DNA of 64,000 nucleotides from Candidatus Bathyarchaeota archaeon (GTDB lineage: Archaea; Thermoproteota; Bathyarchaeia; Bathyarchaeales; Bathycorpusculaceae), in contig CAVZPM010000038.1 of assembly GCA_963777155.1 (NCBI GenBank), forward strand, positions 35,615 to 99,614. The letters are read 5' to 3'. Under the pieces are notes generated by a model that was not told where the DNA came from, did no database searches, and was given only the letters and a program-made list of their open reading frames with translations. The translations under genes and the position numbers were made by a program. This document shows positions 21,407-64,000 of the stretch, piece by piece; position 1 is the first letter of the stretch, and every line of letters starts with the position of its first letter.

Positions 21407-22330
21407 ATGGCAGAAATAGTTAAAGACACAGCGGAAAGAATAAGAATGCTCCAAGTTCAAGGCGCCCGAAACGTCGCCATAGCCGCTGTCAAAGCCATCC
21501 AAACACAAGCAGAAAAAACCAGAGCAAAAAACAAAGCCGCCTTTCTATCTGAACTTAAGGAAGCCCAAACCATCTTTGTTGCTTCCAGAGAAACTGAGCC
21601 ATTGATGCGAAACGCCATTCGCTTCATAAACACAAAAGCCCAAGGTGCAGATACAGAAAAAGTTGCGGAGTTGAGCCGTCTGGTGTCTTCTGCCGCAAAC
21701 CAGTTTTTGACTGAGTTGGATGCGTCAAGGGAACGCGTTGCAGAAATAGGCGCAAAACGAATCTGGGATGGCATGGTTATTTTTACCCACTGTCACTCCT
21801 CAACCGTAACACGTATGATGGCTAAGGCAAAAAACCAGGGCAAAAATTTCAAGGTAATCTGCACCGAGACGCGCCCTGCCTTTCAGGGAAGAATAACCGC
21901 CAAAGAGCTTGTGGACTTAGGCATTGAAACCACATTTATTGTTGATTCGGCAACGCGAACTTTCATTGGTGATGCAGACTTTGTGGTTGTCGGTGCAGAC
22001 GCAATAACCTCCGAGGGCAATGTCGTAAACAAGATTGGAACAAGCGCTATTGCAGTACTAGCCCATGAGGCCCGCAAACCGTTCTATGCGGTTTCGGAAC
22101 TCCTTAAGTTTGATCCGGAAACCCTTGGCGGCGAATGTGAAAAAATCGAGCAAAGAAGCCACACAGAAGTTTGGAGCGAAGCGCCACCAAAGCTTACCAT
22201 AAGAAATCCCGCTTTCGATGTCACCCCAAACCGTTACATTCACGGCCTAATTTGTGAAGAAGGTATAATCGCTCCACAAGTGGTCGTGGAAGTTATGCGT
22301 CGCAGGTTTCCATGGGTTTTCCTCTCTTAA
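21407..22330 (+). CDS. e2b2: Ribose-1,5-bisphosphate isomerase (eIF2B-related)
   Basis: VQGARNVA, RETEPLMRN, THCHS (catalytic Cys), ETRP..QG, VGADAIT (catalytic Asp), NKIGT and NPAFDVTP motifs. Near RuBisCO and AMP phosphorylase. Confidence 0.9.
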   Translation: MAEIVKDTAERIRMLQVQGARNVAIAAVKAIQTQAEKTRAKNKAAFLSELKEAQTIFVASRETEPLMRNAIRFINTKAQGADTEKVAELSRLVSSAANQFLTELDASRERVAEIGAKRIWDGMVIFTHCHSSTVTRMMAKAKNQGKNFKVICTETRPAFQGRITAKELVDLGIETTFIVDSATRTFIGDADFVVVGADAITSEGNVVNKIGTSAIAVLAHEARKPFYAVSELLKFDPETLGGECEKIEQRSHTEVWSEAPPKLTIRNPAFDVTPNRYIHGLICEEGIIAPQVVVEVMRRRFPWVFLS

Positions 22331-22479: not shown

Positions 22480-25029
22480 TTATGGTCGTTTCTTCATCAT
22501 CATTACTACTAGTAGAACTAGTACTATGATGATTAAGACGAATAGACCTGCAATTGCTGGTACGAAGTATGTGTCAGCTGTTGATGCTGGTGTTGGTGTT
22601 GGTGCTGTGGTTGCTGCTGGTTGGTCTTCAACGAAGAAGGCGCTTTGAGCGACTGATCCATAGTATGCTTCAGAGCCTGCGAAGGTGACGTAGACTGTGT
22701 ATGAGCCTGAGATGTCTGGTTTCCAGTTGAGTTTGTATGCGCCTGTGAGGTCGCTTGTGGTTGTGCCAACTACACGGTAGTTTCCGTTAGCGTCAAGGAC
22801 ACTAACAGTTAATGGAACACCACTTGCGTTGTTTGGACATTCGAATTGCTTGTAGACATAGAGCATCCATGCACTTTGGCTTGCGTCAGAGACTGCTGGA
22901 ACACCATTGGGGAACCGTGTTTTTAATGCGTCTGTTTGAGTGCCTGCTGAAGTGTCGACTACTGTGCCCTTTATAACGACAGTTTTGCCGAATTCAACTG
23001 ACACGTCAGGAGCTGTTACTGTTAGTGCTGTTGGTCCTTTGCCGATTGCGTAGATACGTTGGTCGTATGTGTCCATGGTTGCTATGATGCTGTCGCCGAT
23101 GATGCCGTTACCGCCCCAGCGGGTTTCACGGTACATACCGTTAACACGCCAAATTTCTGATGCCGTCAGTTGCGTTGATGCATATGTATGGTCCGCCTCT
23201 TGGTATTGGTTGTTCAGCTGAGTGCTCAAGGGTGCCGATATAGATTTTACCGTCAGCAATCAAGTCAATCCAGCCCCACCAGTTCTCGCCAGTGACAGGT
23301 TCATTGTATGGGTCAGTCATTTGGTAGGTCCATGTTGTTGCGCCAGTCTTCAGGTCGTAAGCATATAGTATGCCTGCGACACCGACTGAGTAGAGTTTGC
23401 CGTATGCATAGTACCAGGTGTGTTCAACGTTGCCCCAGCCGTACATGTCTAAGTAGTTTTCAGAGGCAGTTGCCCATAGGTATTGGCCGGTTTCAACGCT
23501 AAAGGCGTAGTGGGTTCTTAGTTCTTTGTCCCAGACTGCGATGACGCCGTCTTTGACATAGTTGGTTGCGCCGGAATAGTGCAGTGTGTTTGAGCCAGAG
23601 AGCCATTCAGAAGGTGCTGCCCAAAATACATTGAAGAGCAATGATGTTGATGTTGAAGTTTTTGTTAAGCCTGCGAGGTTTAGTGCCCATACTTCAACGG
23701 TGGTTTGGTTGAAGTAGATTGACATAATTCTGTCATTGTTGTAGACTTTTGCAAATGGTGCAAAGAAGGATGTGCCAGCTGTAATTCCTGAGGGGATTGT
23801 TACGTTCCATGAGTAGGATTTTGGATTTGTTGCAACGAGTGTCTTTCCGTGTACGTTGCTTGCCCAACTACCCAAGTCTGGAGAGTTTACGGTTGTAGTC
23901 TGTAGTCCACAAAGTGTTGAGTTCCAAAGTGCCATCCAATGGTTTTGGAAGTCTATTTGGTAGATTAGAATTTCACCGCTTGGACCGCGAACAGTAGCTA
24001 TGCCTGAAGGAACGTTTGTGAAGGTGAATTCCCATGATCCGTCAAAAGGATCGTATGCATTCCATGTTGTGCCTTGGTTTGCGTAGACGTATGTGTATAC
24101 ACCGTCGACGTTGTAGCTGTTCCAGTATAGAATTTGGCCGAATGATAGTGCTGTATTGTTCTTGAACCAGAGATCTTTTCCTGTGTGCAGGTCAACTGCT
24201 TTTATGCCTTGTACACCAAGAGTGCTGCTGTATGTTCCTCCTGGTGCGACGTTGTAGTAGAGTATACCGTTCATTATTATTGAGCCACTGAATTTGCCTT
24301 CGTATGCGTCGCCTGATTCAGAAGATGCTGGAACTTGTCCATCGCCCCACAGTCCACCGGTTAAACCGCCAGTGGTTAAGTCTTTAGCCCATAGAGTGTG
24401 TGCGGTGGTTGGTGCATCATCATTGTAGAGTGCTATTGAGTTTTCTGGTATTGTCACCCAGTTGCCTGAGATGGAGTACCATTCTCTTAGCTGTGGATCG
24501 ATTGGGCGACTCCAGTATTCAGTTGGAAGAGCATGACCTGGATAAGATAGTAATGGTTCAGTGGTGACTTCAAGGGTCATTGTGGCTGTGCTTGCTAGCA
24601 TTACTGTGCCTGGGAGCAATGTAGGAGCCTCGTTCAAAGTCCATGAATCCAGGGACTGCTACTGTGTTGTTGGGGAAGTTTGTCGTTATCGTATAGTTTC
24701 CTTCCTGGGTTGGTGTGTATGTTGTGAAGCTTGAGCCTGTGGAGTCTGTGCTGAATGGGCCAAGTGTTTCTGTGGTGCCGTCAGGTTTTACAACAGTTAT
24801 TGTAATACCTGTCCACTTTCAGATCGGCGGAGCCTAAGGCTTGAGAGATACCGAATTTGAGTAGTGTTTCTTGTCCAACTCCTGTTGGGCTGGGTATTGC
24901 GTCAGCTATGGCGTAGGTTTTCTGTGTAATTGCTGCCTGTGCATTTACAGGGCTTATGTGTACCGATGTTACAACGGACATTAGAAATGCAAATATCAAT
25001 AACATTCCGATTGCATTTTTTGTTTTCAA
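22480..25029 (-). CDS. Large secreted PQQ-like beta-propeller surface protein with an Ig-like domain, Thr/Pro stalk and C-terminal TM anchor (several frameshifts)
   Basis: Signal peptide in 24781..25029, propeller blades (AVDLHTGKDLW, AYDLKTGATTW) in 23141..24637, and YAIGKGP..TTAPTPTPAS..TM-KKRP* in 22480..23259. The segments join by frameshifts. Confidence 0.8.
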
Positions 25030-25434: not shown

Positions 25435-26658
25435 CTATACTTTCCATCGTTTTAGTGCATCATCAAGTTCCTGATGACTCTTTGCATATTCATCAAGGGT
25501 TTTGCCTTCCAAAGTGGCGTCAACGGCTTGACGCATTGCTGTGGCACCACAGATTGTTCCATTTGGATGCCCATGGATGCCGCCGCCTGCTTGGATGACT
25601 AAGTCGTTGCCGAAAGTCGACATCAGAGCAGGAACCAAACGAGGATGTAACCCGCCACTTGCAACAGGCAAAACTGGCTCAAGATCGCCCATTTCTGCTT
25701 TGCAGGAAGATATGTTTTCGAGGACTTCGGCTTTGGTTTCCGACATTTTACCGACAACCGTTCCGACGTGGAGTTGGTCTACGCCAATGATTCTGGCGAC
25801 TGACGCGATGGGTTTCATGGAGATACCGTGCTGCTGGTTTTTGGTGAAAGCAGCGTGTCCAGCGCGGTGGGCGTGAATGACGAGTTTGAAGTTTTGGTCT
25901 CTTAGCGTTTGGAGGGCTGACCATCCACATGTGAGAATATCCACCATGACGTATTCGCCACCTTGGTCAAGGACGCTTTGGGCGCGCTTAAGCATGGTGT
26001 TTGTTTCTGCAGTGATGTTTATCATGTAGACTTTACGTTCACCTGTTTCTTTTTGGGCTTTGTCTCGGCTCTCCAAAGTCTGTATCAAGCGGGTTTCAAA
26101 CGGGTTGAAACTCTGGCTACTCAGGTTTTCATCATCCTTTACAATGTCGCAGCCGCCTAGCCACGCCTCATATGCCACTTTAGCATGGTCTTTGGTCTCT
26201 AACCCAAGTTTAGGTTTGATTATTGTTCCTACCAGTGGACGCTTGGGAACTTTGAGGAGCTTACGGATTCCGCTGATCCCAAAGGCTGGACCTTTAAAGC
26301 TATCTAAAAGTTGTTTTGGGAATTCTATGTTAAGTAGACGTAGGTTTTTTAGTGCTTTTAAGCCAAAAACGTTTCCTGCTATGCTACTTAGGATATTTGG
26401 CATGTTAGCTGGTTCAAAAAGTTCGGGAGGATATGCTATTTTTACTACGTTATCTTCGATTCTAAAGACGTGGGCAGCAAGTCGCTTGACGTAGGGCTTC
26501 TCAGTGGTTAGTTCTGTCCATGTGCCCACTGAACTCTCCGCCGCCACACCTCCTGCAGCTTCCTTTAGGCTTAAGCCTTCGGGGTCAACTTGAAAAGTAC
26601 ACACCAATTCTGTTTCTTTGGGTTCGTAGGTTAAATCGACAAAGTCAAGATACTTCAA
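25435..26658 (-). CDS. rbcL: Form III ribulose-1,5-bisphosphate carboxylase/oxygenase
   Basis: AAESSVGTW, GTIIKPKLGL, GGCDIVKDDENL (carbamylated Lys motif), HAHRAGH, HVGTVVGKM, SGG and QAGGG motifs. Confidence 0.96.
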   Translation of the reverse strand: MKYLDFVDLTYEPKETELVCTFQVDPEGLSLKEAAGGVAAESSVGTWTELTTEKPYVKRLAAHVFRIEDNVVKIAYPPELFEPANMPNILSSIAGNVFGLKALKNLRLLNIEFPKQLLDSFKGPAFGISGIRKLLKVPKRPLVGTIIKPKLGLETKDHAKVAYEAWLGGCDIVKDDENLSSQSFNPFETRLIQTLESRDKAQKETGERKVYMINITAETNTMLKRAQSVLDQGGEYVMVDILTCGWSALQTLRDQNFKLVIHAHRAGHAAFTKNQQHGISMKPIASVARIIGVDQLHVGTVVGKMSETKAEVLENISSCKAEMGDLEPVLPVASGGLHPRLVPALMSTFGNDLVIQAGGGIHGHPNGTICGATAMRQAVDATLEGKTLDEYAKSHQELDDALKRWKV

Positions 26659-26738: not shown

Positions 26739-28292
26739 GTGTTCGAAATGGAGTTAAGCGTTGAAACCTTGATGATCACTACGGGTGGTAGCAGAATCGC
26801 ACTACTTAGCGAGCAAACCGCCAGCCTTTTAGGAGTACATAGTTCAGACAGGATAAAAATAACCTGCGAAAAACAAGAGATGATAGCCATCGCCAACATC
26901 GCTGATTATTTTCCACAAAACCGCGTTGGACTCTACCGAGAAACCGTTACAGCACTCGGAGTTAAGGAAGGCGAAACTGTGAATGTGCAGTTAGCACCAT
27001 TGCCTGAATCGCTCTTTAACATACGCGCCAAGCTGCATGGGGAACGCTTACGCGAGAAAGATATTATGGCCATCGTAAAGGACGTTATAGAGAGACATTT
27101 AAGCACGGTTGAAATCGCCGCGTTCCTTACAGCACTTAGCATCCATGGATTGAGCACGGGTGAGACCGAATCTCTTTCAAGAGCCATGATTTCTACTGGC
27201 AAAACAATTGATTTCGGCAAAAGACCCATCCTAGACAAGCATAGTGTAGGTGGAATCCCAGGTGATAAAACTAGCATGCTCGTTGTACCCATTGTGGCAG
27301 CGGCAGGTTTCACGATCCCCAAAACTTCCTCGCGAGCCATCACCTCCCCAGCTGGCACAGCAGACCGAGTTGAGACCCTTTGCCCAGTCAACTTATCCAT
27401 AAAAGAAATCAAAGAAGTCGTCTCAAAAACAAATGGTTGCCTAGTCTGGGGTGGGTCTTTGGAGCTTGCGCCAGCCGATGATCTCTTCATTCAAGTTGAA
27501 TACCCTCTGGGAATCGACCCTATGCTTTTACCTTCGATTCTAAGTAAGAAGAAAGCCATCGGAGCAACACATGTAGCAATCGACATCCCGACGGGTATGG
27601 GTGCTAAAATCAAAACCCGAACTGAAGCCTACACTTTGGCATCCGATTTTGTAGATTTGGGTAAACGGTTAGGGTTAAACATCCAATGCGCGTTGACTTT
27701 TGGGGAACAACCCTTGGGTTACGGAATCGGACCCGCCTTGGAAGCAAGGGAAGCGTTGACTACTCTTATGGGTGCGGGTCCACCTGATTTACGTGAAAAA
27801 GCCGTTTCCCTCGCTGGAATGCTCTTCGAAATGGTAGGAGCCAAAAACGGTCGAGCCATGGCTGAAAAAATGATTGATTCGGGCAAAGCAATGAAAAAGA
27901 TGCGTGAAATCATAGCTGCTCAAGGCGGAAATCCATCGGTTAAGCCTGAAGAGTTGCCTATTGGTCAAGAATCAGCTATTGTGCGTTCAGAGCAGGCAGG
28001 CAGAGTCCTCTGGCTAAGCACAGACGACATTGTGAGGATAGCTAGAGAAGCTGGGGCACCAAAAGAGAAGGGAGCAGGCGTTGTTTTGCATGCAAAGTTA
28101 GGCGGGACAGTTCACAAAGGTGGTGTGCTCCTTGAAATCTATGCTGAGCGAAGCAGCAAGTTGGCTTCAGCGCTAGAACTAGCGGGGAAACTCTCTCCGA
28201 TTGTATTAAGTAAGAAACCAGAGGAAAAAATGATTCTGGACAAAGTACCAGAGAAAACCAGACATGAAAAAGCGTTCAATATAGACAGGTAA
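26739..28292 (+). CDS. deoA: AMP phosphorylase (archaeal thymidine-phosphorylase family)
   Basis: N-terminal double-psi barrel plus DKHSVGGIPGDKTS, PKTSSRAITSPAGTAD and GIGPALEA motifs. Divergent from rbcL with an 80-nt gap. Confidence 0.93.
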   Translation: MFEMELSVETLMITTGGSRIALLSEQTASLLGVHSSDRIKITCEKQEMIAIANIADYFPQNRVGLYRETVTALGVKEGETVNVQLAPLPESLFNIRAKLHGERLREKDIMAIVKDVIERHLSTVEIAAFLTALSIHGLSTGETESLSRAMISTGKTIDFGKRPILDKHSVGGIPGDKTSMLVVPIVAAAGFTIPKTSSRAITSPAGTADRVETLCPVNLSIKEIKEVVSKTNGCLVWGGSLELAPADDLFIQVEYPLGIDPMLLPSILSKKKAIGATHVAIDIPTGMGAKIKTRTEAYTLASDFVDLGKRLGLNIQCALTFGEQPLGYGIGPALEAREALTTLMGAGPPDLREKAVSLAGMLFEMVGAKNGRAMAEKMIDSGKAMKKMREIIAAQGGNPSVKPEELPIGQESAIVRSEQAGRVLWLSTDDIVRIAREAGAPKEKGAGVVLHAKLGGTVHKGGVLLEIYAERSSKLASALELAGKLSPIVLSKKPEEKMILDKVPEKTRHEKAFNIDR

Positions 28293-30907: not shown

Positions 30908-31085
30908 ATAATCAATTCTTTGGCATGTAACTATATTACCATATGGCAATCTAGCCGTAACTTGCATCACGATAATAAACCTAATAATAGCTGCATACGT
31001 CGCAGTGTTAACAGTGCTGCTAATCTATAAAGCCAAAAACAAAGAAGAAAAACAGAAAGGAGTCTCAAAAAGAGACTAAAATGGC

Positions 31086-32510
31086 TTATTTTTTGTTTGT
31101 TAGGTATTCGTGCATGGCTTTGGCTGCGCGTTTACCTGCACCCATTGCGCTAATGACTGTGGCTGCGCCTGTTGCAACGTCTCCGCCTGCGTAAACTCCA
31201 TCTAAGCTGGTTTTACCAACTTCGTTGACGCATATGGTACCGTGTTTTGCATCGCTTTGGAGACCGTCTGTGGTACGTTGGATAATTGGGTTCGGTGTTT
31301 GTCCGATAGCGATTATGACTGTATCGACATCCATCGTAAATTCTGAGCCTGGAACTGTTTTGACACCTCGTCTGCCTTTTGCGTCTGGCTCCGTGAGTTC
31401 CATTGCGATGACTTTCATGCTTTTAACCCATCCTTTTTCGTCGCCGTAGAATTCTACTGGCGCCGCAAGGAATTTACAGACTAATCCTTCTTCCTCAGCA
31501 TTCTCGATTTCTTCATGCCTTGCAGGTAGTTCATCACGCGAACGTCTGTAGAGTAAACATACTTCAGATCCAAGACGCATGCTACTTCTTGCGCAGTCCA
31601 TAGCTACGTTTCCGCCACCGATCACAACTACGTGTTTGCCGATGCGTATTGGTGTATCGTATTCTGGGAACAGGTAGGCTTTCATGAGGTTAACGCGGAT
31701 GAGGAATTCGTTGGCCGAGTAGATTCCGCCAAGGTTCTCTCCCTTACAACCAGTGAACTGTGGTAAGCCTGCACCGCTTCCGATGAAAACTGCCTCGTAA
31801 CCGTTCTTCATCAGCTCAGGTATTGTGTGGATTCTACCGACCAAGTTGCCAAGACGCAAGTCAACACCAAGTTTCTGGACATAGTTGACTTCGTTTTGAA
31901 CGATGGCTTTGGGCAGACGGAACTCTGGAATACCGTACATAAGCACTCCACCGCCTACATGCAACGCCTCAAACATGGTGATTTCGTGGCCAAGCTTAAC
32001 GAGGTCGGCTGCAACGGTTAGTCCCGCTGGACCTGCACCGATAACTGCTACTTTTTTGCCTGTTGCCGGAGCTGTTGGTGGAAGTTGAGAACCATTGTCT
32101 CGTTCCCAATCTGCTAGAAAACGTTCTAAACGTCCGATGCTTACGGGTTCACCCATCTTACCAATGACACATTTTGCTTGGCATTGTACTTCTTGGGGGC
32201 AGACACGTCCGCAAACGGCTGGCAACGCGTTTTTTGCTTTAATGGCAGCTATGCCTTCGGCATACTTCTTTTCTCTGATGCATTTGATGAATGTTGGAAT
32301 TGGAACTTCCACTGGACATCCGTTCCGACATTGAGGATTGGGACAGCAAAGGCATCTGCTTGCTTCTTCTTGGGCTTCTGCTTCAGTGTATCCCAAAGCG
32401 ACTTCACTGAAATTTTTGGCGCGAACCTTAGGCTCTTGTTTTGCCATTTCTACGGCTTTCTTGTTTAACTTTGGTTTAGGCTTTGTTTCTGCCACACTTA
32501 CAACCTCCAC
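31086..32510 (-). CDS. nfnB: NfnB/SudA-type large subunit (NADPH-dependent glutamate synthase beta-like)
   Basis: NFSEVALG..EASRCLCCPNPQCRNGCP, GRVCPQE.QC..C, GAGPAGL, GGGNVAMD and AGGDVATG motifs. Confidence 0.9.
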   Translation of the reverse strand: MEVVSVAETKPKPKLNKKAVEMAKQEPKVRAKNFSEVALGYTEAEAQEEASRCLCCPNPQCRNGCPVEVPIPTFIKCIREKKYAEGIAAIKAKNALPAVCGRVCPQEVQCQAKCVIGKMGEPVSIGRLERFLADWERDNGSQLPPTAPATGKKVAVIGAGPAGLTVAADLVKLGHEITMFEALHVGGGVLMYGIPEFRLPKAIVQNEVNYVQKLGVDLRLGNLVGRIHTIPELMKNGYEAVFIGSGAGLPQFTGCKGENLGGIYSANEFLIRVNLMKAYLFPEYDTPIRIGKHVVVIGGGNVAMDCARSSMRLGSEVCLLYRRSRDELPARHEEIENAEEEGLVCKFLAAPVEFYGDEKGWVKSMKVIAMELTEPDAKGRRGVKTVPGSEFTMDVDTVIIAIGQTPNPIIQRTTDGLQSDAKHGTICVNEVGKTSLDGVYAGGDVATGAATVISAMGAGKRAAKAMHEYLTNKK

Positions 32511-33321
32511 TCATTTCTGACAATACTGAACTCAACCTTTCTTCAGGAAGCATCGTTCGTTGACGCAGTATTAACTCGTCAAAATCTGTTTTGTGACCGT
32601 CAAATTCTGGTCCATCCACACAACCGAACATCATTTTGCCATCAACTGTAACTCGGCATACCCCGCACATACCCATCCCATCAATCATTATGGGCGTAAG
32701 TGTTACGATTGTAGGTATGTTGTAGGGCTTGGTTATTTCGCTGATGTCCTTCATAAGAATAACTGGACCCATGACTACACAACGATCAAACTTTTCTGTC
32801 TTAAGCAATTCTTTCAGGAAATCTAAGCCTTTGTAGCCTTTTGACCCATCGTCGGTTGCAACGTAGACTTTTTCACTGAGCGCTTTAGCCTCGTTCTCCA
32901 TCATAACGAATTCTTTGGTTCGGGCACCTAAAACTGTAGTTACTTTGTTCCCTGCTTCCTTCATAGCTTTAGCCTGTAATAGCAATGGCGCAATCATTAC
33001 GCTTCCGCCCACACAGAGTACCTTGCCAAAGTTTTTGACTTCTGATGGGTTGCCCAGCGGACCAGTAACATTGTCTATACATTCTCCTTGATTCAGCAAG
33101 CCCAAGTTTTTCGTGGTTTTGCCGACTTCATGGAAAGCAAAGGAAACCGTGCCCTTCACTGTGTCATATCCACAGATTGTTAAGGGTATACGTTCACCTG
33201 TTTTTCCATGAATTACTATTAGAAATTGACCAGCGTGCGATTGAACAGCAACGTCTGGTGCCTCAACTTCAAAGAGTTTGATCTTGGGAACTAATTCTTT
33301 TTTCGATACTATTTTGTACGT
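32476..33321 (-). CDS. nfnA: NfnA/SudB-type small subunit (FAD, [2Fe-2S]), apparent ACG start
   Basis: The frame is open 54 codons upstream of the track start: (T)YKIVSKKEL..EVEAPDVA..AGQFLIV..GERIPLTI. C-terminal IMIDGMGMCGVCRV..GCVDGPEFDGH. Confidence 0.88.
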   Translation of the reverse strand, partial: TYKIVSKKELVPKIKLFEVEAPDVAVQSHAGQFLIVIHGKTGERIPLTICGYDTVKGTVSFAFHEVGKTTKNLGLLNQGECIDNVTGPLGNPSEVKNFGKVLCVGGSVMIAPLLLQAKAMKEAGNKVTTVLGARTKEFVMMENEAKALSEKVYVATDDGSKGYKGLDFLKELLKTEKFDRCVVMGPVILMKDISEITKPYNIPTIVTLTPIMIDGMGMCGVCRVTVDGKMMFGCVDGPEFDGHKTDFDELILRQRTMLPEERLSSVLSEMSGGCKCGRNKA

Positions 33322-34535
33322 TTTGCAGTCGCCTCCACAGCTACTTCACGTTTGGGTAAAGCACATATTTTCTTATAGAATTCATCGAGTTTTGTTTCGA
33401 AGTCGCCAGCGCATCTGGGTGATTCCTCGTAGAGTTCAAATCTATCAATCAAACCCAGCTTTTTAAGTGAAACTTGCAATGCAGCCACGTTGCGTTCTGC
33501 TGCGCTTCTTCCTTCTTGAAGTTTACAGTCCTTTGAGGAGCAAACCACACCCATGACGCCGTCGAAGCCACAGTTTAACGCGTTTATGATGTGGACAGGG
33601 TCGAGGGATTTAAAGCATGGAACTTCAAGAGCTAAGACATTTTTACCTTCGAACGCTTTATTCGGGTTATCTAATGCCGAAAACTCGGACCATTGACAGA
33701 CGAATGCAAGAACTGCGGGTCCTTTGTTTTTTGCTTTTAATTGTGCGAGCGATTTGCCGTAGCGGTCAACTACGTCTTCGAACTCGAAGCCTTTCACCTG
33801 TATGGCATGGTGAGGACAAACCAGTTGGCATGCGCCGCAGCCAGTACATTTTTCTTCATTCACTTTTGGAGTTGCAAACGATTCAAACTCAAGTGCACCG
33901 TATGGACAGATAAAGATACATTTGTCACATCCCACACAAGCTTGCACATCGTAAACGGCTTTGCGAGAAAATTTTATGACTTTGACCGCGTTCTCGTCGT
34001 ACCCTAATTGTTTCAAAACATTTTTCGCTAAAACGAGTCGCCGAGTGTTAATTTTTGTGCCTTCTTTATAGCGGCAGAATGGGTCTTCACATTGAATCGA
34101 AACAATGTTTTTTACACCAGAGTTTAAAGCATCAAAAACAAAGTCTGTTGGAACTCTTCCTGCACAGGGCAAACGCAACGCCATGTAGTTGTCAACCTTC
34201 AACCCTTGCGCTTTAAGGATGTCTTGAACTTCACCTGTTGAAGGTGAGTTTCCTCGGCACATTAAAACAAGGGTTTCAGCTGCAGTTTTGGACTTTTCTT
34301 GGGCCTTTTTAAGGTAGTCAGAAAGTTTGTCATAGGTGTAATATTGCATTTTTATGGCTGCAGATGGACAAGCACTGTAGCATATTCCACAAACTTGGCA
34401 GTCCTGGCTGTTGACTTCAACTTTGCCCGTTGAATCCGCTTTTATAGCTTCATACGGACAGATAGATTTGCAGACGTAACATCGACTGCATAGGTCTTGA
34501 TCGATTTCCACTACAGCAAGACATTTTTCACTCAT
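33309..34535 (-). CDS. Tandem ferredoxin-MvhD(FlpD)-ferredoxin-MvhD fusion protein
   Basis: Four CxxCxxCxxxCP motifs in two pairs. Each pair is followed by an MvhD-like domain with four Cys (MCRG/LPCAGRV/QCEDPFCRY and VCQW/VPCFK/VCSSKDCKL). Confidence 0.82.
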   Translation of the reverse strand: MSEKCLAVVEIDQDLCSRCYVCKSICPYEAIKADSTGKVEVNSQDCQVCGICYSACPSAAIKMQYYTYDKLSDYLKKAQEKSKTAAETLVLMCRGNSPSTGEVQDILKAQGLKVDNYMALRLPCAGRVPTDFVFDALNSGVKNIVSIQCEDPFCRYKEGTKINTRRLVLAKNVLKQLGYDENAVKVIKFSRKAVYDVQACVGCDKCIFICPYGALEFESFATPKVNEEKCTGCGACQLVCPHHAIQVKGFEFEDVVDRYGKSLAQLKAKNKGPAVLAFVCQWSEFSALDNPNKAFEGKNVLALEVPCFKSLDPVHIINALNCGFDGVMGVVCSSKDCKLQEGRSAAERNVAALQVSLKKLGLIDRFELYEESPRCAGDFETKLDEFYKKICALPKREVAVEATAKRTK

Positions 34536-34638
34536 TTGTAAACCTCATTTCACTCGTTTTAAACCTAATATCGCTTTGGCAGAGCTTAAGCTGATTGAAA
34601 ACATGAAAAGAGTTTAAGAATATTATAATCCTTTCTCT

Positions 34639-35571
34639 CTATTTTCTGTAATATGGTCGTCTAATGTAACTGTAAGCTTCCAAAGCCGCAGTTATGCCTT
34701 GACCCACAGCAGTACCCACCTGCTTTATCGGTTGATCTGTAACGTCACCTGCCGCGAACACTCCAGGCAAGTTGGTTTCCTGCCGTACGTTGACTTTGAT
34801 GTAGCCATGCTCGTTTATGTCTACACCTGCAGTTTTAGCAAGTTGGCTGTTTGGCGCCTCTCCAATCTGAACAAAAACTGCGTCAACAGCTACCTCGTTT
34901 GTTTCTTTAGTCATGTTATCGAATAATGTTACTGTTCTGACTTGTTTGTCTCCTTTGATTTCTTGGATTTCGGTGTTCCACATTATGCTGACGTTACTTT
35001 TTGTCGAAATATCCGAAACCAAACTCGCTTCTGCACGGAAGGCTTCCCGCCTGTGGATAACAAAAACCTGAGACGCCAAACCTGAAAGATAAAGTGTTGT
35101 GACACATGCGGTGTTTCCTCCGCCAACAACAAGGACTCGTTTGCCCTTAAAGAATGGCCCATCGCATACTCCACAATAACTTACTCCTTTGCCTTTGAAT
35201 TCGGTTTCGCCTTTAACGCCAAGCTCCCTATAATGTGAGCCTGTGGAGTAGATGACGGCTTTGGTTTGGTATGCGGCGCTGGAGGTCTTCACGGTCTTTG
35301 CTTCGCCTGCGAGATCAAGTCCAGTAACAGGTTCAATGTCATGGATAGTTGCCCCCACTGTTCTAGCATGGGATGTCATTTTTTCCGAGAGTTCGCCACC
35401 GCTTATCTCAGCAAAACCAGGGTAATTAACGACTTTTGAAGCGTCAGAGATTGCGCCGCCAGCAAATTTTTCGTCTAAGATAAGTGTCTTCAAGCCACTT
35501 CGAACTGCGTAAATGCCAGCCGCTAAACCAGCAGAGCCAGCGCCAATAATTATAACATCCCAGTTCTCCAT
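34639..35571 (-). CDS. trxB: Thioredoxin-disulfide reductase
   Basis: GAGSAGLAAG, GVSYCGVCDGPFFKGK, GGGNTA, HRREAFRA and FAAGD motifs. Likely start is ATG 35571. Confidence 0.93.
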   Translation of the reverse strand: MENWDVIIIGAGSAGLAAGIYAVRSGLKTLILDEKFAGGAISDASKVVNYPGFAEISGGELSEKMTSHARTVGATIHDIEPVTGLDLAGEAKTVKTSSAAYQTKAVIYSTGSHYRELGVKGETEFKGKGVSYCGVCDGPFFKGKRVLVVGGGNTACVTTLYLSGLASQVFVIHRREAFRAEASLVSDISTKSNVSIMWNTEIQEIKGDKQVRTVTLFDNMTKETNEVAVDAVFVQIGEAPNSQLAKTAGVDINEHGYIKVNVRQETNLPGVFAAGDVTDQPIKQVGTAVGQGITAALEAYSYIRRPYYRK

Positions 35572-35690
35572 AATATACAACTCTTTACGGTAAATACTGA
35601 GCATGACAGGTTATAAAATTGTTCGATTTGCCTGAACTCCAATAAACTGATAAGTACCTATTGATTTAGTTTCTAATAGCTTTTTGAGGT

Positions 35691-37457
35691 TTGATTATGG
35701 CGAAATACAGGTGCACAGTCTGCAACTACGTTTATGACGATGCGAAAGAAAAAGTGAATTTTGCTGATTTACCAAAAGAATGGGTATGTCCGGTTTGCGG
35801 AGCGCCCAAGTCAGTCTTTGTGCTTCTTGCGGAGAAATCCGAGGAGAAAAAAGTAATTGACCATACGGTTTCTGAAGTTCTGATTAACCAAATTGCTGCT
35901 TGGGGTGTGCAGTACGTTTTCGGTATTCCCGGAACATCAACATTGGGTATTGTGGATGCCATACGCAAAACTAACGGCAAAGTCAGGTATATACAGGTGC
36001 GCCATGAAGAAACTGCGGCGTTTATGGCTTCAGCTTACGGCAAGTTAACTGGGCATGTTGCGGCTTGCCTCGGAATTTCTGGTCCAGGGGCAACCAACCT
36101 TGTGACTGGCCTGTACGATGCGCAACTGGATCATTCCCCCGTTTTAGCCTTGACAGGCATGGTTGCTCGCAAACAGATAGGCCAAGGCGCAATACAAGAA
36201 ATTGACCATCAAGCATTCTTTGAGCCCTTAACAGTCTACAACAAAACTCTGATGACAGAAGAACAAACCACAAGCATCACAACTTTGGCGATTAAACATG
36301 CACTTCTAGATCAAGGTGTGGCGCACATCGGAATTCCCAACGATGTCCAAAAGTTGCCATATAAAGCTGAGATTTTGCCGTTTGAGGGCAGAATGCCTAA
36401 CATGGCGTATGGGCAGGAAGAGGGGGTGATCGAGAAGGCAGCAAAAGTTATCGATTCAGCGAGTAGACCGGTAATTTTAGTAGGGTTTGGCGCAAGAGGA
36501 CAAGGTAACAAACTGTTGAAGCTCGCGTCGAAGATTGGTGCGCCAATTATGGCTACTTTTAGGGCCAAAGGTGTCGTTGACGAAAACGAGACGCTCTATG
36601 TTGGTTGTCATGGCGGTGTAGGTTCAACTGCGGCAGGTGAACTCATGACAAAATCAGATTTGCTCATTGCGATTGGCTCGTCGTTTTCGGATTTGTCGCT
36701 GATACCTCAGAAACGTACGGTGCAAATTGACATTAATCCATTGATGATTGCCCGTAGGTACCCAGTTGAAGTCGCCTTGCTGGGCAACAGCGCCGTTCTG
36801 ATTCCGAAACTGACAGAGAACGTCGCACAAAAACAAAACACAGATTACTTAAATGAAGTTGCAAGATTAAAACAAGCTTGGGCGGAACAACTAGAAAAAG
36901 AAACAAACCCAACCACCAAGCCAATCAGACCACAATACATAATGAAGGTATTAAACCAAAAAATCGCCGATAATGCAGTCATTTCGCTAGATGTTGGCGA
37001 GAACTGCTGGTGGTTTGGTAGAAACTTCCGCATGAAGAAAACGCAAAAAATGGTCATGAGCGGCGGTTTAGCGACAATGGGCTTTGGTTTGCCAGGAGCA
37101 TTGGCTGCAGCGCTGGCTTACCCTGAAAGGCAGATTGTGTGTTTAACAGGCGATGGCGGCTTAACTATGGTTTTAGGCGACTTCTTAACTGCCCTCAAAT
37201 ATAATTTGCCAATCAAAGTGTTTGTAATAAACAACAAGCGGCTTGGAATGATTATGCAAGAGCAGAAAGTAGAGGGCTACGAGAGTTGGCAAACTGACTT
37301 ATTCGATTACAGCTTCGCTGACTTCGCTGAACATTCGGGGGGCATGGGTATCAAAGTCACTGAGCCAAGTGAGCTTGAGGCAGCAGTTGACAAAGCACTC
37401 AAATCTACTAAAGCCACAATCGTTGACATAGATACTGACCCGAGAAGGTTTCTGTGA
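35691..37457 (+). CDS. Rubredoxin fused to a pyruvate oxidase-like ThDP/FAD enzyme
   Basis: N-terminal [21 protein letters not shown], then [21 protein letters not shown] and [15 protein letters not shown] motifs. Confidence 0.88.
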
Positions 37458-53360: not shown

Positions 53361-54613
53361 TTAAGGGTTTGCAGACAAGTAAAGCAGCCCAAAGTAGAGG
53401 AGAGCGGCTGCCATCGCTGGCTTCTGAACAGCGGTTAGCAACATTTTACCCTGAAAATCTATTTCATCCACTTCACGTAATGTTTTATCGACACCCAACT
53501 TGCCACAGACGTGAAGCATCTCATCTAACTTTTCGTCGGAAAGAGAATTAAGAAACCGCCTTAGCCTTAACATAACGTTAAAGTCGAAACGCATCAAAGA
53601 ATCACAACGCTTCTGATACGCCTGCAAAACTCTAGAAGAAACATCGTCTTGCGCAATGGCTTTAGCCTGCTGCTTCCGCAGCTTCCTTTGCAGCGGTTAA
53701 CCCGAAGATGACGCCGCCGCCAGTGGTAGGCTTCACTTGGGAAGCACAATCGCCAACAGCTAGAAAACCGTTGGTGTATGCCTGCGGAATTGGACCAGCC
53801 AAAGTGATCGCGTGGAAGCCAACATTTGTCATTGTTGGCTTTTGCAAGTTGTTTTGAAGCAATTGGATGTCTTGTCATTAGTCTTTTTAGGTATTCTCGT
53901 GGATCACCTTTGTTTGTCGCTAACCCCACTTTTGCTGAGCCATCAGGCCTTGGAATAAGCCAACCATAAAAGCCCGGTGCATAAGCCTTTCCAAAATAAA
54001 CTTCAACCGCGTCAAGGTCAACATTCTGAACATTTTCCATTTCTGCCTCAACAGCGTACACTATTCCGTTTGGTTTGAGTGGAGTTAAGCCTGTTTGCCG
54101 CAGAAGTCTCGATGAGATCCCTTCAGCGTCCACTACAATTTTGGAGTTAACTTGCACTATAGCGCCATGGTCCTGGAAGACATTGATGCCTTTAACATAT
54201 CCATCAGCCATTGTCAGTGATTGAACAGGGGAACTTAATGCAAAGGTTGCTCCAGCAGCCTCGGCTTGCCCTGCCAAATACTGATCAAAGCGTGTCCTGT
54301 TCAAAGCAACGGTAACTGGACAGGAAAGGTGTAGCGAGAATTTGGTGCCGTAGGGTGAGTAAAAGTTGGCGGTGCAAAACTTGTTCTCCAAAATGCCATC
54401 GGGAAGTGGATAGAGACCCATTGTTTTTAGACTTCGAATGCTGATATGTCCAGCGCAGTGTGAGGGCACTCCAATTTGTGGATGCTCCTCAAAAACTGTG
54501 ACCATGACACCTTTTTTTGCCAGGTTTAGTGCTGTATATGAACCGACTGGTCCACCCCCAACTACAATAACGTCTGGATTATTGGCTATGAAGGGTTGCT
54601 TGTGGGCAGTCAT
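53361..54613 (-). CDS. Geranylgeranyl reductase family flavoprotein (two frameshifts)
   Basis: VVGGGPVG, PSHCAG, RTRFD, GFYGWLIP and AVGDCASQVKPTTGGG motifs spread over ORFs 53594..54613, 53662..53862 and 53361..53627. Confidence 0.85.
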
Positions 54614-62278: not shown

Positions 62279-64000
62279 TTACTTTACCGTAACCGATTTT
62301 GCTAGGTTGCGGGGCATGTCGGGGTTAAATCCTTTCTCCAGAGCTACATAGTACGCCAACAGTTGTAGCGGCACCGCAAAGGGGATGGGCGAGAGTATGC
62401 TTGGTATGCCTTTTGGTACTTCGATATAATCGTCAGCTAAGGATTTGATTTCTTCATCTCCTTCCTCTATGACGGCGATTATGTTGGCGCCTCGGGCTTT
62501 CATCTCCATGATGTTGCCGATGATGGTTCTATGGGTGTCATCTCTTGGACATATGAATACAACGGGGAAGCCGTCTTCAATTAGGCTGATTGGGCCGTGT
62601 TTGCTTTCGCCTGCAGGGAACGCAATTGATGGGATATAGGCGATTTCCATGAGTTTGAGTCTACCCTCGAAAGCAGTGGCTGTGCTTATGCCTCTGCCTA
62701 AGAAGAAGAACACTTTAGAAGCCGCGTATTTCTTGGCGATTTGCTTTACCTTTTTCTCCTGTGTTCTAACAATCGTTTCGACGTCGTCTGGCATCTTTTT
62801 AAGGTTCTCTTGCAAGCAGTCGATTTCGTCCTGAGAAACCTTGCCGCGTTTCTTGGCAAGTTTGAGCGCAAGTTGAGCTAAAACCGAAAGTTGAGAAGTA
62901 AAAGTCTTGGTAGCTGCAACGCCGATTTCTGGACCTGCCTGTGTGCCGATATAAACTCTGGAAATACGCGTCATAGATGAACCGATGACGTTTGTTAGGC
63001 TTAGCACGGTTGCTGCCCTTTGCTGGGCACAGCTTACCGCAGCTATGGTGTCTGCGGTTTCGCCTGATTGACTCACAGCTAATAGTGTGCTGTCGATGTT
63101 AACGGATTTGCCACATTGCTCCAAAAACTCTGAGGCATACACGGGGTAGGTGGGCAAGAAACGCCAGTTTAGAGAACATATAGGAAGCTGCTAGGCAAGC
63201 ATGGTAACTTGTTCCACATGCAACCAAGAAAACTTCGTTGGCACGGTCAAGGAAAGTAGCAAGCAAATCCAAGTAGTGATCCTGAATACGCAAAGTGTTG
63301 CGAAGCGTTTCAGGTTGCTCATGAATTTCCTTAATCATAAAATGTGGATATCCCTGCTTAACCGCCATCTCTGCAGTCCACTCTACGGTTATTGGTTCGC
63401 GCTCAATTGCACTGTTATCTGAAATTCTTCTGATTTCGTAACCATCGGCGGTGAGGATGACGAGTTCGCCGTTGTTTATCATAACGGCTTTGTTGGTAAC
63501 CTCTAAAAACGCCGGAATATCAGAGGCGCAAAATACACCTTTGCCGTTGATTCCCAAGACGAGGGGGCTTTCGTTTCGGGCGCAGATTATCTTGTCGGGT
63601 TCACGTGTAGAAATTATGGCAAATGCGTAGGAGCCTTCTATCCGTTTGAGGCTAGCCAAAACAGCTTGTTGGAGTGTGAGGTTAGGGCTTTGTTTTAGTG
63701 TTTCCTCGATCAGATGGGGCATAACTTCGGTGTCTGTTTTTGAGACGAAGGTGTGACCGAGGTTTTGGAGTTCAGCTTTGAGTTCTATGAAGTTTTCGAT
63801 GATACCATTGTGGACTACGACGATTTCGCCTTTGCAGTCGACGTGGGGGTGAGAGTTAATTTTCAGGGGTGCACCGTGGGTTGCCCAACGCGTATGGCCG
63901 ATGCCTATGCTGCCGGGCATATCGTCCAGGTTTACTATTTTGTGTACCTCATCAATTTTTCCCGAGTCTTTTTTGATGAAGATTTTTCCGTCTGAAATGG
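62279..64000 (-). CDS. glmS: Glutamine-fructose-6-phosphate transaminase (5'-partial, frameshift near 63158)
   Basis: GIGHTRWATHG, HNGIIENF, SQSGETAD, GPEIGVAATKTF, ESKHGP and NLAKSVT motifs. The frame is open to the window end. Confidence 0.95.

Follow-up and report, generated by a model that had tools for sequence, protein, structure and literature searches.

Comparison with described electron-bifurcating systems

In anaerobes, Nfn balances the pools of NADH, NADPH and ferredoxin, and to our knowledge it has so far been described as a two-subunit enzyme that works with free ferredoxin. We analysed a 64-kb stretch of Bathyarchaeia DNA (contig CAVZPM010000038.1, hereafter the window) in which the genes of an NfnAB enzyme are preceded by a gene for a 408-amino-acid (aa) protein built from two copies of a ferredoxin domain (Fd) joined to an MvhD-like domain. 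A previous reading made from the letters of the DNA (the sequence-only reading) had taken this protein for a dedicated adaptor that wires NfnAB to ferredoxin or to a remote HdrA complex. Our study suggests that the operon encodes an electron-bifurcating enzyme in a three-part form not described so far, with the adaptor probably acting as a dedicated, cofactor-only third subunit that links NfnAB to a hydrogenase, Hdr or ferredoxin partner. According to the list of open reading frames (ORFs), the genes, all on the minus strand, are ordered trxB, adaptor, nfnA and nfnB, and the features of the locus are the following.

34639..35604, minus strand: trxB, NADPH-dependent thioredoxin reductase (TIGR01292)
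34583..34630, minus strand: elements of the trxB-adaptor spacer, from an alignment of 51 spacers
33309..34535, minus strand: tandem (Fd-MvhD)2 adaptor, 408 aa (Pfam, NCBIfam, cysteine alignment, AlphaFold2 (AF2) model)
33319..33336, minus strand: translation start region of nfnA, within the 3' end of the adaptor gene, with GGAGG and ACG
32476..33321, minus strand: nfnA (NfnS), 281 aa (NF004862; 5jca_S)
31086..32510, minus strand: nfnB (NfnL), 474 aa (TIGR01316; 4ylf_B)
31035..31077, minus strand: terminator-like element read off the sequence, 3' of the nfnB stop

The closest described enzymes are the NfnAB/NfnSL of T. maritima (4YLF) and NfnI of P. furiosus (5JCA), with which the window genes share full-length homology, the cluster and flavin motifs and the overlap of the two genes. 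Characterised Nfn enzymes, however, consist of two subunits or of a single fused chain and use free ferredoxin, whereas here the gene of a six-cluster protein precedes nfnA. The NfnABC/Bfu and Stn types, which consist of NuoF/HydB-like parts, are different (PMC11829005, PMC12018979, PMC10482914).

The adaptor resembles the MvhD of the MvhAGD-HdrABC, FdhAB-MvhD-Hdr and Elp-Hdr complexes in its fold and in its four [2Fe-2S] cysteines, and in those complexes MvhD connects an electron donor to the flavoenzyme. In the Elp-Hdr structure, MvhD is an electron-transferring connector: electrons travel along [4Fe-4S] clusters in a terminal domain of HdrA and from there reach the MvhD homologue, whose [2Fe-2S] lies beside the bifurcating FAD (PMC12350162). 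However, MvhD is a stand-alone protein of ~140 aa, a small subunit of its own encoded with mvhAG, fdhAB or hdrA, whereas in the adaptor it is fused behind 2x[4Fe-4S], occurs in tandem and is encoded with NfnAB. The C-terminal Fd and MvhD portion of HdrA2 of Methanosarcina acetivorans, an HdrA-MvhD fusion whose MvhD domain holds one [2Fe-2S] (PMC5296606), matches each half of the adaptor, but the latter lacks the thioredoxin-reductase-like FAD domain, the inserted ferredoxin domain and an hdrBC partner. A GltD/NfnB-type module, MvhD and Fd domains also come together in the MetVF-HdrABC-MvhD system of Moorella and Sporomusa and in the HdrA-NfnB of ANME-1 (PMC9430772, PMC9012536). The Moorella HdrA has a GltD domain, and pull-downs placed MvhD in contact with HdrA, HdrB and MetF (PMC9430772); the HdrA of ANME-1 carries an NfnB insert (PMC9012536). 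In these organisms the GltD/NfnB part sits inside HdrA, whereas in the window NfnAB is intact and the flavin domain of HdrA is missing.

Two further systems are similar in part. The polyferredoxin MvhB is, like the adaptor, a multi-cluster protein with no catalytic site that is encoded with redox enzymes, and it acts as a fixed relay. However, the solved MvhB consists of ~412 aa of repeated Fer4 motifs, and its PDB alignment with the adaptor shows Fer4 matches and no FlpD match, whereas the Fer4 motifs of the adaptor number only four and are interleaved with its two FlpD domains. The FlxABCD-HdrABC of sulfate reducers combines a PyrK-like flavoprotein that oxidises NAD(P)H with Fe-S proteins and with an MvhD-like subunit delivering electrons to Hdr; it is not known to contain a bifurcating subunit of the GltD/NfnB type, its FlxD consists of one MvhD, and hdrABC is adjacent. 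No hdr genes adjoin the operon in the window, and the resemblance to Flx-Hdr is partial, through those relatives that have hdrA (12/30) or an hdrD-like gene (15/30) nearby. All the parts of the locus are known, and the combination and the family are undescribed in the literature that we found: our search, whose coverage mostly excluded subscription journals, returned no paper on an MvhD-type protein in an nfnAB operon or on a tandem Fd-MvhD family.

Domain architecture and predicted cofactors of the adaptor

In two stretches of the 408-aa protein, Pfam matched PF02662 (FlpD/MvhD) with 124.7 bits; it also identified four Fer4 motifs and gave no match to any Pyr_redox or FAD family. The four domains are arranged as follows.

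34514..34338, minus strand: Fd1, residues ~8-66
34283..33966, minus strand: FlpD1, residues ~85-190
33962..33786, minus strand: Fd2, residues ~192-250
33722..33354, minus strand: FlpD2, residues ~272-394

Residues 1-190 and 191-408 align with each other at 28% identity (E 8e-21). The protein has 28 cysteines, 24 of which are invariant in 18 family members of 29-64% identity: those of the four CxxCxxCxxxC motifs, together with C93/C124/C149/C154 and C280/C307/C332/C337. Both FlpD quartets are also invariant in 73 further sequences, and the four FlpD cysteines line up with those of the solved MvhD. The internal duplication, with all the cysteines expected of ferredoxin and MvhD-like domains, had been claimed by the sequence-only reading and is borne out by these alignments. 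The predicted cofactors are four [4Fe-4S] and two [2Fe-2S] clusters.

The best NCBIfam match was the HdrA2 model NF040770, whose C-terminal part (positions 573-750 of 777) was matched twice, with a score of 179.7 bits that is far below the cutoff of 1100. Both Fd domains of the adaptor find a counterpart in residues 582-655 of HdrA, which make up its C-terminal ferredoxin domain. The best PDB sequence match for the Fd motifs was the polyferredoxin MvhB (9sw6_G). The AF2 model of the adaptor (pLDDT 78, pTM 0.75) had MvhD 5odc_D as its best Foldseek match in the PDB (TM 0.80, root-mean-square deviation 2.6 Å); this match covers one domain only, and no full-length structural relative was found in the PDB fold search. 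Matches to [FeFe]-hydrogenase and sugar-isomerase folds, with TM below 0.25, were rejected as noise. By its sequence, each half of the adaptor is a terminal ferredoxin domain of HdrA followed by MvhD.

Identity of NfnAB and TrxB

NfnB reached 580 bits with TIGR01316 (cutoff 471.75) and aligned to T. maritima NfnB (4ylf_B) with an E of 3e-163, both cysteine clusters included. It is a GltD-like subunit with two [4Fe-4S], FAD and an NADPH site, as in the large subunit of NfnAB. NfnA scored 345.1 bits with NF004862 (cutoff 220), and its residues 1-253 aligned to the small subunit of P. furiosus NfnI (5jca_S; E 6e-75), beginning at residue 9 of the solved chain. The cluster motif DGMGMCGVCRV...GCVDGPEF is retained and aligned, and the protein has the PyrK-like character, the FAD/NAD-binding domains and the [2Fe-2S] site of the NfnAB small subunit. 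Judged by these models and alignments, the two genes are a bona fide nfnAB pair, whose predicted activity is the reduction of NADP+ with NADH and reduced ferredoxin.

TrxB reached 348.1 bits with TIGR01292, above the cutoff of 343.45, and it contains the active site CGVC and the NADPH motifs GGGNTA and HRREAFR (HRRxxFR). Because the cutoff is reached and the CGVC and HRRxxFR motifs are present, we consider this thioredoxin reductase to be NADPH-dependent. An NADPH-type trxB just upstream on the same strand had been proposed beforehand, and both the coordinates and the NADPH motifs agree with it; the true trxB start is likely Met12, at 35571.

Probable initiation of nfnA at an ACG codon

Special attention was given to the start of nfnA, since no ATG, GTG or TTG occurs where the gene must begin; the first canonical start is GTG 33159, which would give a protein of 227 aa. 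In the window, the conserved initiation position holds ACG (33321..33319), and GGAGG (33336..33332) lies 10 nt ahead of it within the 3' end of the adaptor gene. The aligned start codon in 79 genome loci is ACG in 55, ATG in 18, GTG in 5 and CTG in 1, with the same spacing to GGAGG, and in the relatives with ATG or GTG the protein begins M-Y-K-I-V ~10 nt past GGAGG. The 55 codons after ACG are free of stops, evolve under strong purifying selection with a ratio of nonsynonymous to synonymous substitution rates (dN/dS) of ~0.08 and align to the N-terminus of the solved NfnS from residue 9 onward; a canonical start is missing from them in 25 of 53 sequences. Due to the conserved open frame, the starts of the relatives and the GGAGG spacing, nfnA most likely initiates at ACG and extends from 33321 to 32476 (281 aa). 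The use of ACG as an initiation codon seems to be shared across this archaeal lineage.

Three other possibilities were considered. GTG 33159 was rejected, as the 55 codons upstream of it align to NfnS, have a dN/dS of 0.08 and often lack a canonical start. ATA at 33315, which would form an ATAG overlap, is less likely because the ATG or GTG of the relatives lies two codons upstream, at the same distance from GGAGG. A programmed -1 frameshift at A-AAA-C fusing the adaptor to NfnA was rejected as a general mechanism, since the run of A is not conserved (GAAACG, ACACG and ATAACG variants exist) while ACG is. The sequence-only reading had the adaptor stop overlapping the nfnA start and nfnA overlapping nfnB: the second overlap is firm (35 nt), and the first, of 13 nt, hinges on the non-canonical ACG.

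Conservation of the adaptor-nfnA-nfnB order

We conducted two surveys. One covered 80 species-level Bathyarchaeia genome loci (adaptor identity 64-93%), and the other covered 80 metagenome loci that a profile built from more distant relatives retrieved, with adaptors 45-69% identical to that of the window. An exact look-up of the window protein in the contig collection gave no match. The close relatives of the adaptor all come from Bathyarchaeota/Bathyarchaeia metagenome-assembled genomes, whose sources are peat, bog, wetland and soil. Throughout the 80 genome loci, nfnA and then nfnB follow the adaptor wherever the contig reaches that far, and in the metagenome loci nfnA comes next after the adaptor in 58/58 and nfnB next in 44/44. 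The linkage to nfnAB, on whose conservation the proposal of an Nfn adaptor depended, is therefore maintained throughout. Upstream of the adaptor and on the same strand, trxB is found in nearly all the genome loci and in 36 of 57 metagenome loci. A second Bathyarchaeota lineage (CP070835, 53% identity) has trxB, rubrerythrin, adaptor, nfnA and nfnB, and the P0126/P0439 subclade presents the same order at ~40% identity. The complete Bathyarchaeia chromosomes OY970280.1, OY969560.1, OY970286.1, CP070714.1 and CP070835.1 contain the operon. The adaptor-nfnAB order persists at 38-53% identity, where the other flanking genes all differ, and the attachment of the adaptor to Nfn is, on this comparative evidence, old and stable.

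Wider family, tree and natural fusions

A search of 1.84 billion cluster representatives returned ~20 full-length clusters with the tandem architecture. Their genomic contexts fall into two groups, beside metV/metF or beside nfnAB.

P0125, P0135, P0139: metV/metF neighbours
P0130/P0341: metV/metF neighbours, Dehalococcoidia-labelled
P0129: metV/metF neighbour, mtr genes nearby
P0133: member of a CODH/ACS cluster (carbon monoxide dehydrogenase with acetyl-CoA synthase), preceding double hdrA, mvhD and metV
P0126, P0439, P0505 and the P0469-like loci L093/L094: nfnAB neighbours

In a neighbour-joining (NJ) tree, the Nfn-linked members form one clade, apart from the metVF-linked clades. These contexts and the tree lead us to regard the adaptor, as far as gene neighbourhoods can tell, as a modular, general part that is attached to at least two flavoenzyme systems. 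The metVF-adjacent sister clades (loci L081-L090, including P0136) occur in Dehalococcoidia-labelled bacteria and in archaea. Their adaptors may provide the subunit for electron input that has been missing from the MetVF-type reductases of methylene-tetrahydrofolate/H4MPT (tetrahydromethanopterin).

In addition, natural fusions exist. P0200 (702 aa) joins Fer4_20, Pyr_redox_2 (42% identity to the window NfnB), a Fer4 dicluster and FlpD, and P0235 (556 aa) has the same layout; both place an NfnB/GltD-like flavoprotein and one C-terminal Fd-MvhD unit in a single chain.

Candidate partners in the window and in relatives

The window was searched by tblastn with HdrA, an HdrBC-like protein, the [NiFe] large and small subunits, MvhD, MetV and MetF as queries, and no hdr, mvh or metVF gene was found in it besides the 408-aa gene itself; Pfam scans and cysteine counts of the window agree. 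As for formate dehydrogenase, no ORF of the window has the size and cysteine content of FdhA, the scan having been made without an fdh query. The earlier statement that neither the operon nor the window holds hdrA, mvhAG or fdh is thus upheld for hdrA and mvhAG, and for fdh as far as ORF size and cysteine content can tell.

Some relatives do have such genes near the operon. Locus L091 reads adaptor, nfnA, nfnB, mvhD, [NiFe] small subunit, [NiFe] large subunit and hycI; upstream of these lie hdrA-mvhD, present as two pairs, and a gene of the hdrBC type. The P0126 contig resembles this locus. In L150, hdrA-mvhD, trxB, adaptor, nfnA and nfnB lie on a single strand. L144 (1-17176) has etfAB, an hdrA-mvhD fusion (793 aa, HdrA2-type) and an hdrD-like gene upstream and [NiFe] genes downstream, and many of the loci of 58-65% identity likewise have hdrA-mvhD, etfAB and an hdrD-like gene right upstream of trxB, with [NiFe] genes a few kb downstream. 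Among the metagenome loci, 12/30 have hdrA and 15/30 an hdrD-like gene in the 6 kb upstream; [NiFe] genes were found within 8 kb in 5/27 loci. The remote HdrA partner that had been suggested receives indirect support from the upstream hdrA-mvhD and hdrD-like genes of relatives and from the mvhD and [NiFe]-hydrogenase genes that one subclade carries in the same operon, with none of these in the window.

Both L144 and L150 present a redox island of etfA, etfB, hdrA-mvhD, hdrD-like, trxB, adaptor, nfnA, nfnB, a 933-aa enzyme and [NiFe] small and large subunits. The 933-aa protein is an ADP-forming acyl-CoA synthetase fused to a GNAT acetyltransferase.

Candidate regulatory elements and expression

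The trxB-adaptor spacer is 103 nt long and contains three elements that are kept across 51 relatives: a TATA-like box, GATTATAATA, at 34630..34621 on the minus strand; a perfect palindrome, AGCTTAAGCT, at 34592..34583, which is largely kept; and GAGGT at 34546..34542, the putative ribosome-binding site ahead of the adaptor ATG. The 80% consensus of the 51 spacers comprises GATTATA..ATTCT, CTTTT, TT.AGC and GAGGTTT. The TATA-like box and the palindrome could be a candidate promoter and an operator or regulator site. Given the conservation of these elements, transcription of the adaptor-nfnAB unit probably starts from a separate promoter downstream of trxB, and trxB may belong to another transcript. 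Beyond the nfnB stop, the hairpin AGTCTC-TTTTT-GAGACT is followed by T-rich runs (31035..31077) and is a putative terminator. One wetland metatranscriptome provided short contigs over all four genes. The co-transcription that the sequence-only reading had assumed for this tight operon is putative: no contig was seen to span a junction, and trxB is possibly separate.

Proposed function and alternative explanations

We propose that the adaptor would be an electron-transfer subunit with cofactors only and without a catalytic site, each half of which would copy the input wire of Hdr, that is, the terminal ferredoxin domain of HdrA together with MvhD, which in solved complexes brings electrons from the donor to the bifurcating FAD. 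In this lineage the wire would have been freed from the HdrA flavin domain and then duplicated. Made together with NfnAB from translationally coupled, overlapping genes, the adaptor would form with NfnA and NfnB a three-subunit complex. There it would attach to an end of the chain of Nfn clusters, most likely at the ferredoxin-side [4Fe-4S] of NfnB, and join that end to a partner docking in the manner of Mvh/Hdr partners. The partner may vary by lineage. In the P0126/P0439 subclade it would be a [NiFe]-hydrogenase of the Mvh type, and in many other relatives HdrA-MvhD with an HdrD-like protein; the window genome may encode its partner elsewhere or use soluble ferredoxin. Overall, NADP+/NAD+ would be reduced in a partner-dependent way, or the reverse, with the direction of flow and any bifurcation inferred, and the NADPH may feed, among others, the TrxB encoded next door. 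Domain content, cysteine conservation, NfnAB identity, synteny, fusions and expression are the observations from which this proposal starts, and the GltD/NfnB modules joined to Hdr parts in ANME-1 and Moorella are precedents for it.

Several observations weigh against a dedicated third subunit. No hydrogenase, Hdr or Fdh partner for the far end of the wire was found in the window, and Hdr and [NiFe] genes lie near the operon in a minority of loci only (12/30, 15/30 and 5/27). NfnA and NfnB have no obvious insertion usable as a docking site, and the NfnAB of the window looks like a canonical two-subunit Nfn using free ferredoxin. Most other family clades adjoin metVF and not nfnAB; the NJ tree that separates the Nfn-linked clade is rough and without support values; and the RNA contigs are of <=257 nt, with none seen spanning a gene junction. 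The role of a dedicated Nfn adaptor is favoured by the conserved linkage and the NfnB-Fd-MvhD fusions, and it is qualified by a family that is not specific to Nfn.

The canonical appearance of NfnAB also bears on an alternative that we regard as unlikely, namely that the protein is a free, diffusible six-cluster large ferredoxin that serves as a specific low-potential substrate of NfnAB (of MetVF in the sister clades) without forming a stable complex. Canonical Nfn uses diffusible ferredoxin, the sister clades pair with MetVF, for which reduced ferredoxin has been proposed as donor (PMC8760232), and the window holds no partner gene for a wire. However, translational coupling and a strict gene order across deep divergence are typical of subunits, covalent NfnB-Fd-MvhD fusions exist, and MvhD-type domains are fixed connectors in complexes in every solved case. 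The equivalence of the halves to the C-terminal ferredoxin domain of HdrA plus MvhD could instead mean that the adaptor stands in for MvhD and works chiefly for an Hdr complex whose genes lie elsewhere, its synteny with nfnAB and trxB reflecting co-regulation in a thiol/NADPH redox regulon rather than a physical contact with Nfn. This would fit the hdrA-mvhD (12/30) and hdrD-like (15/30) genes found directly upstream of trxB-adaptor-nfnAB in relatives and the rubrerythrin or rubredoxin-fused enzyme that adjoins the cluster. We nevertheless find it rather improbable: the adaptor gene is always joined to nfnA, whereas hdr is often not nearby and is absent from the window; the hdrA genes of the relatives already carry or adjoin their own MvhD; and the natural fusions are to NfnB, not to HdrA only. 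That the adaptor and NfnAB are functionally unconnected, their gene order having been inherited by neutral accident, is already very unlikely, close to negligible. The 80 genome loci belong to one archaeal class, and shared ancestry explains part of their agreement, but the order survives at 38-53% identity amid wholly different flanks, and the genes overlap and are fused in some proteins.

On a dedicated third subunit, the bifurcating core of Nfn would be pluggable into other redox modules, as HdrABC is into Mvh, Fdh and Elp, and there would be a testable route for NADPH from H2 or other low-potential donors in abundant uncultured Bathyarchaeia of peat and wetland. The metVF-adjacent sister clade bears in addition on the electron donor of MetVF-type methylene-tetrahydrofolate reductases. 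A broader proposal, which we put forward tentatively and regard as doubtful, is that tandem Fd-MvhD marks a class of flavin-based complexes, bifurcating or confurcating, that has gone unrecognised and in which a Mvh-type [NiFe]-hydrogenase or an Hdr module would be hard-wired into the ferredoxin branch of NfnAB. Free ferredoxin would then give way to H2 or to a thiol/disulfide couple, with H2 and NADH coupled to the reduction of NADP+, or the oxidation of NADPH to H2 evolution and NAD+ reduction. For methylene-tetrahydrofolate/H4MPT reductase, the corresponding wire in Dehalococcoidia and ANME-1-like archaea would be the protein of the metVF-linked sister clade. The finding comes down to one nameable protein family and one operon, which can be cloned and assayed.

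Other genes in the window

Rfam and tRNA scans of the window identified two tRNAs only, both distant from the operon. Divergent from trxB, at 35691..37457 on the plus strand, lies a gene for a rubredoxin domain (residues 5-43) fused to a complete thiamine pyrophosphate (TPP) enzyme of the pyruvate-oxidase/acetolactate-synthase type, whose best NCBIfam match, pyruvate oxidase, is below the cutoff. This gene keeps its position beside trxB in most of the 80 related genomes, and a rubrerythrin gene occupies the corresponding neighbouring position in another lineage.

A 498-aa ORF at 23141-24637 (minus strand) had no Pfam match at E <= 1e-8; its N-terminus is rich in Thr/Pro and Trp/Tyr/Gly repeats are numerous, so that it may encode a secreted beta-propeller-like protein. 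The glmS gene is split into two overlapping minus-strand ORFs, with the GATase part at 63099..63920 and the SIS part at 62279..63157, and a geranylgeranyl-reductase-like ORF (53594-54613, minus strand) has an Arg/Cys-rich tail that is seemingly out of frame; both are possible frameshifts, from assembly indels or in pseudogenes. Finally, an IF-2B-family protein of the ribose-1,5-bisphosphate isomerase type (21407-22330, plus strand), a RuBisCO large subunit that its context suggests is probably of the archaeal form III (25435-26658, minus strand) and an AMP-phosphorylase-like glycosyltransferase-family-3 protein (26739-28292, plus strand) are encoded close together and are the three enzymes of the archaeal AMP/pentose-bisphosphate pathway.

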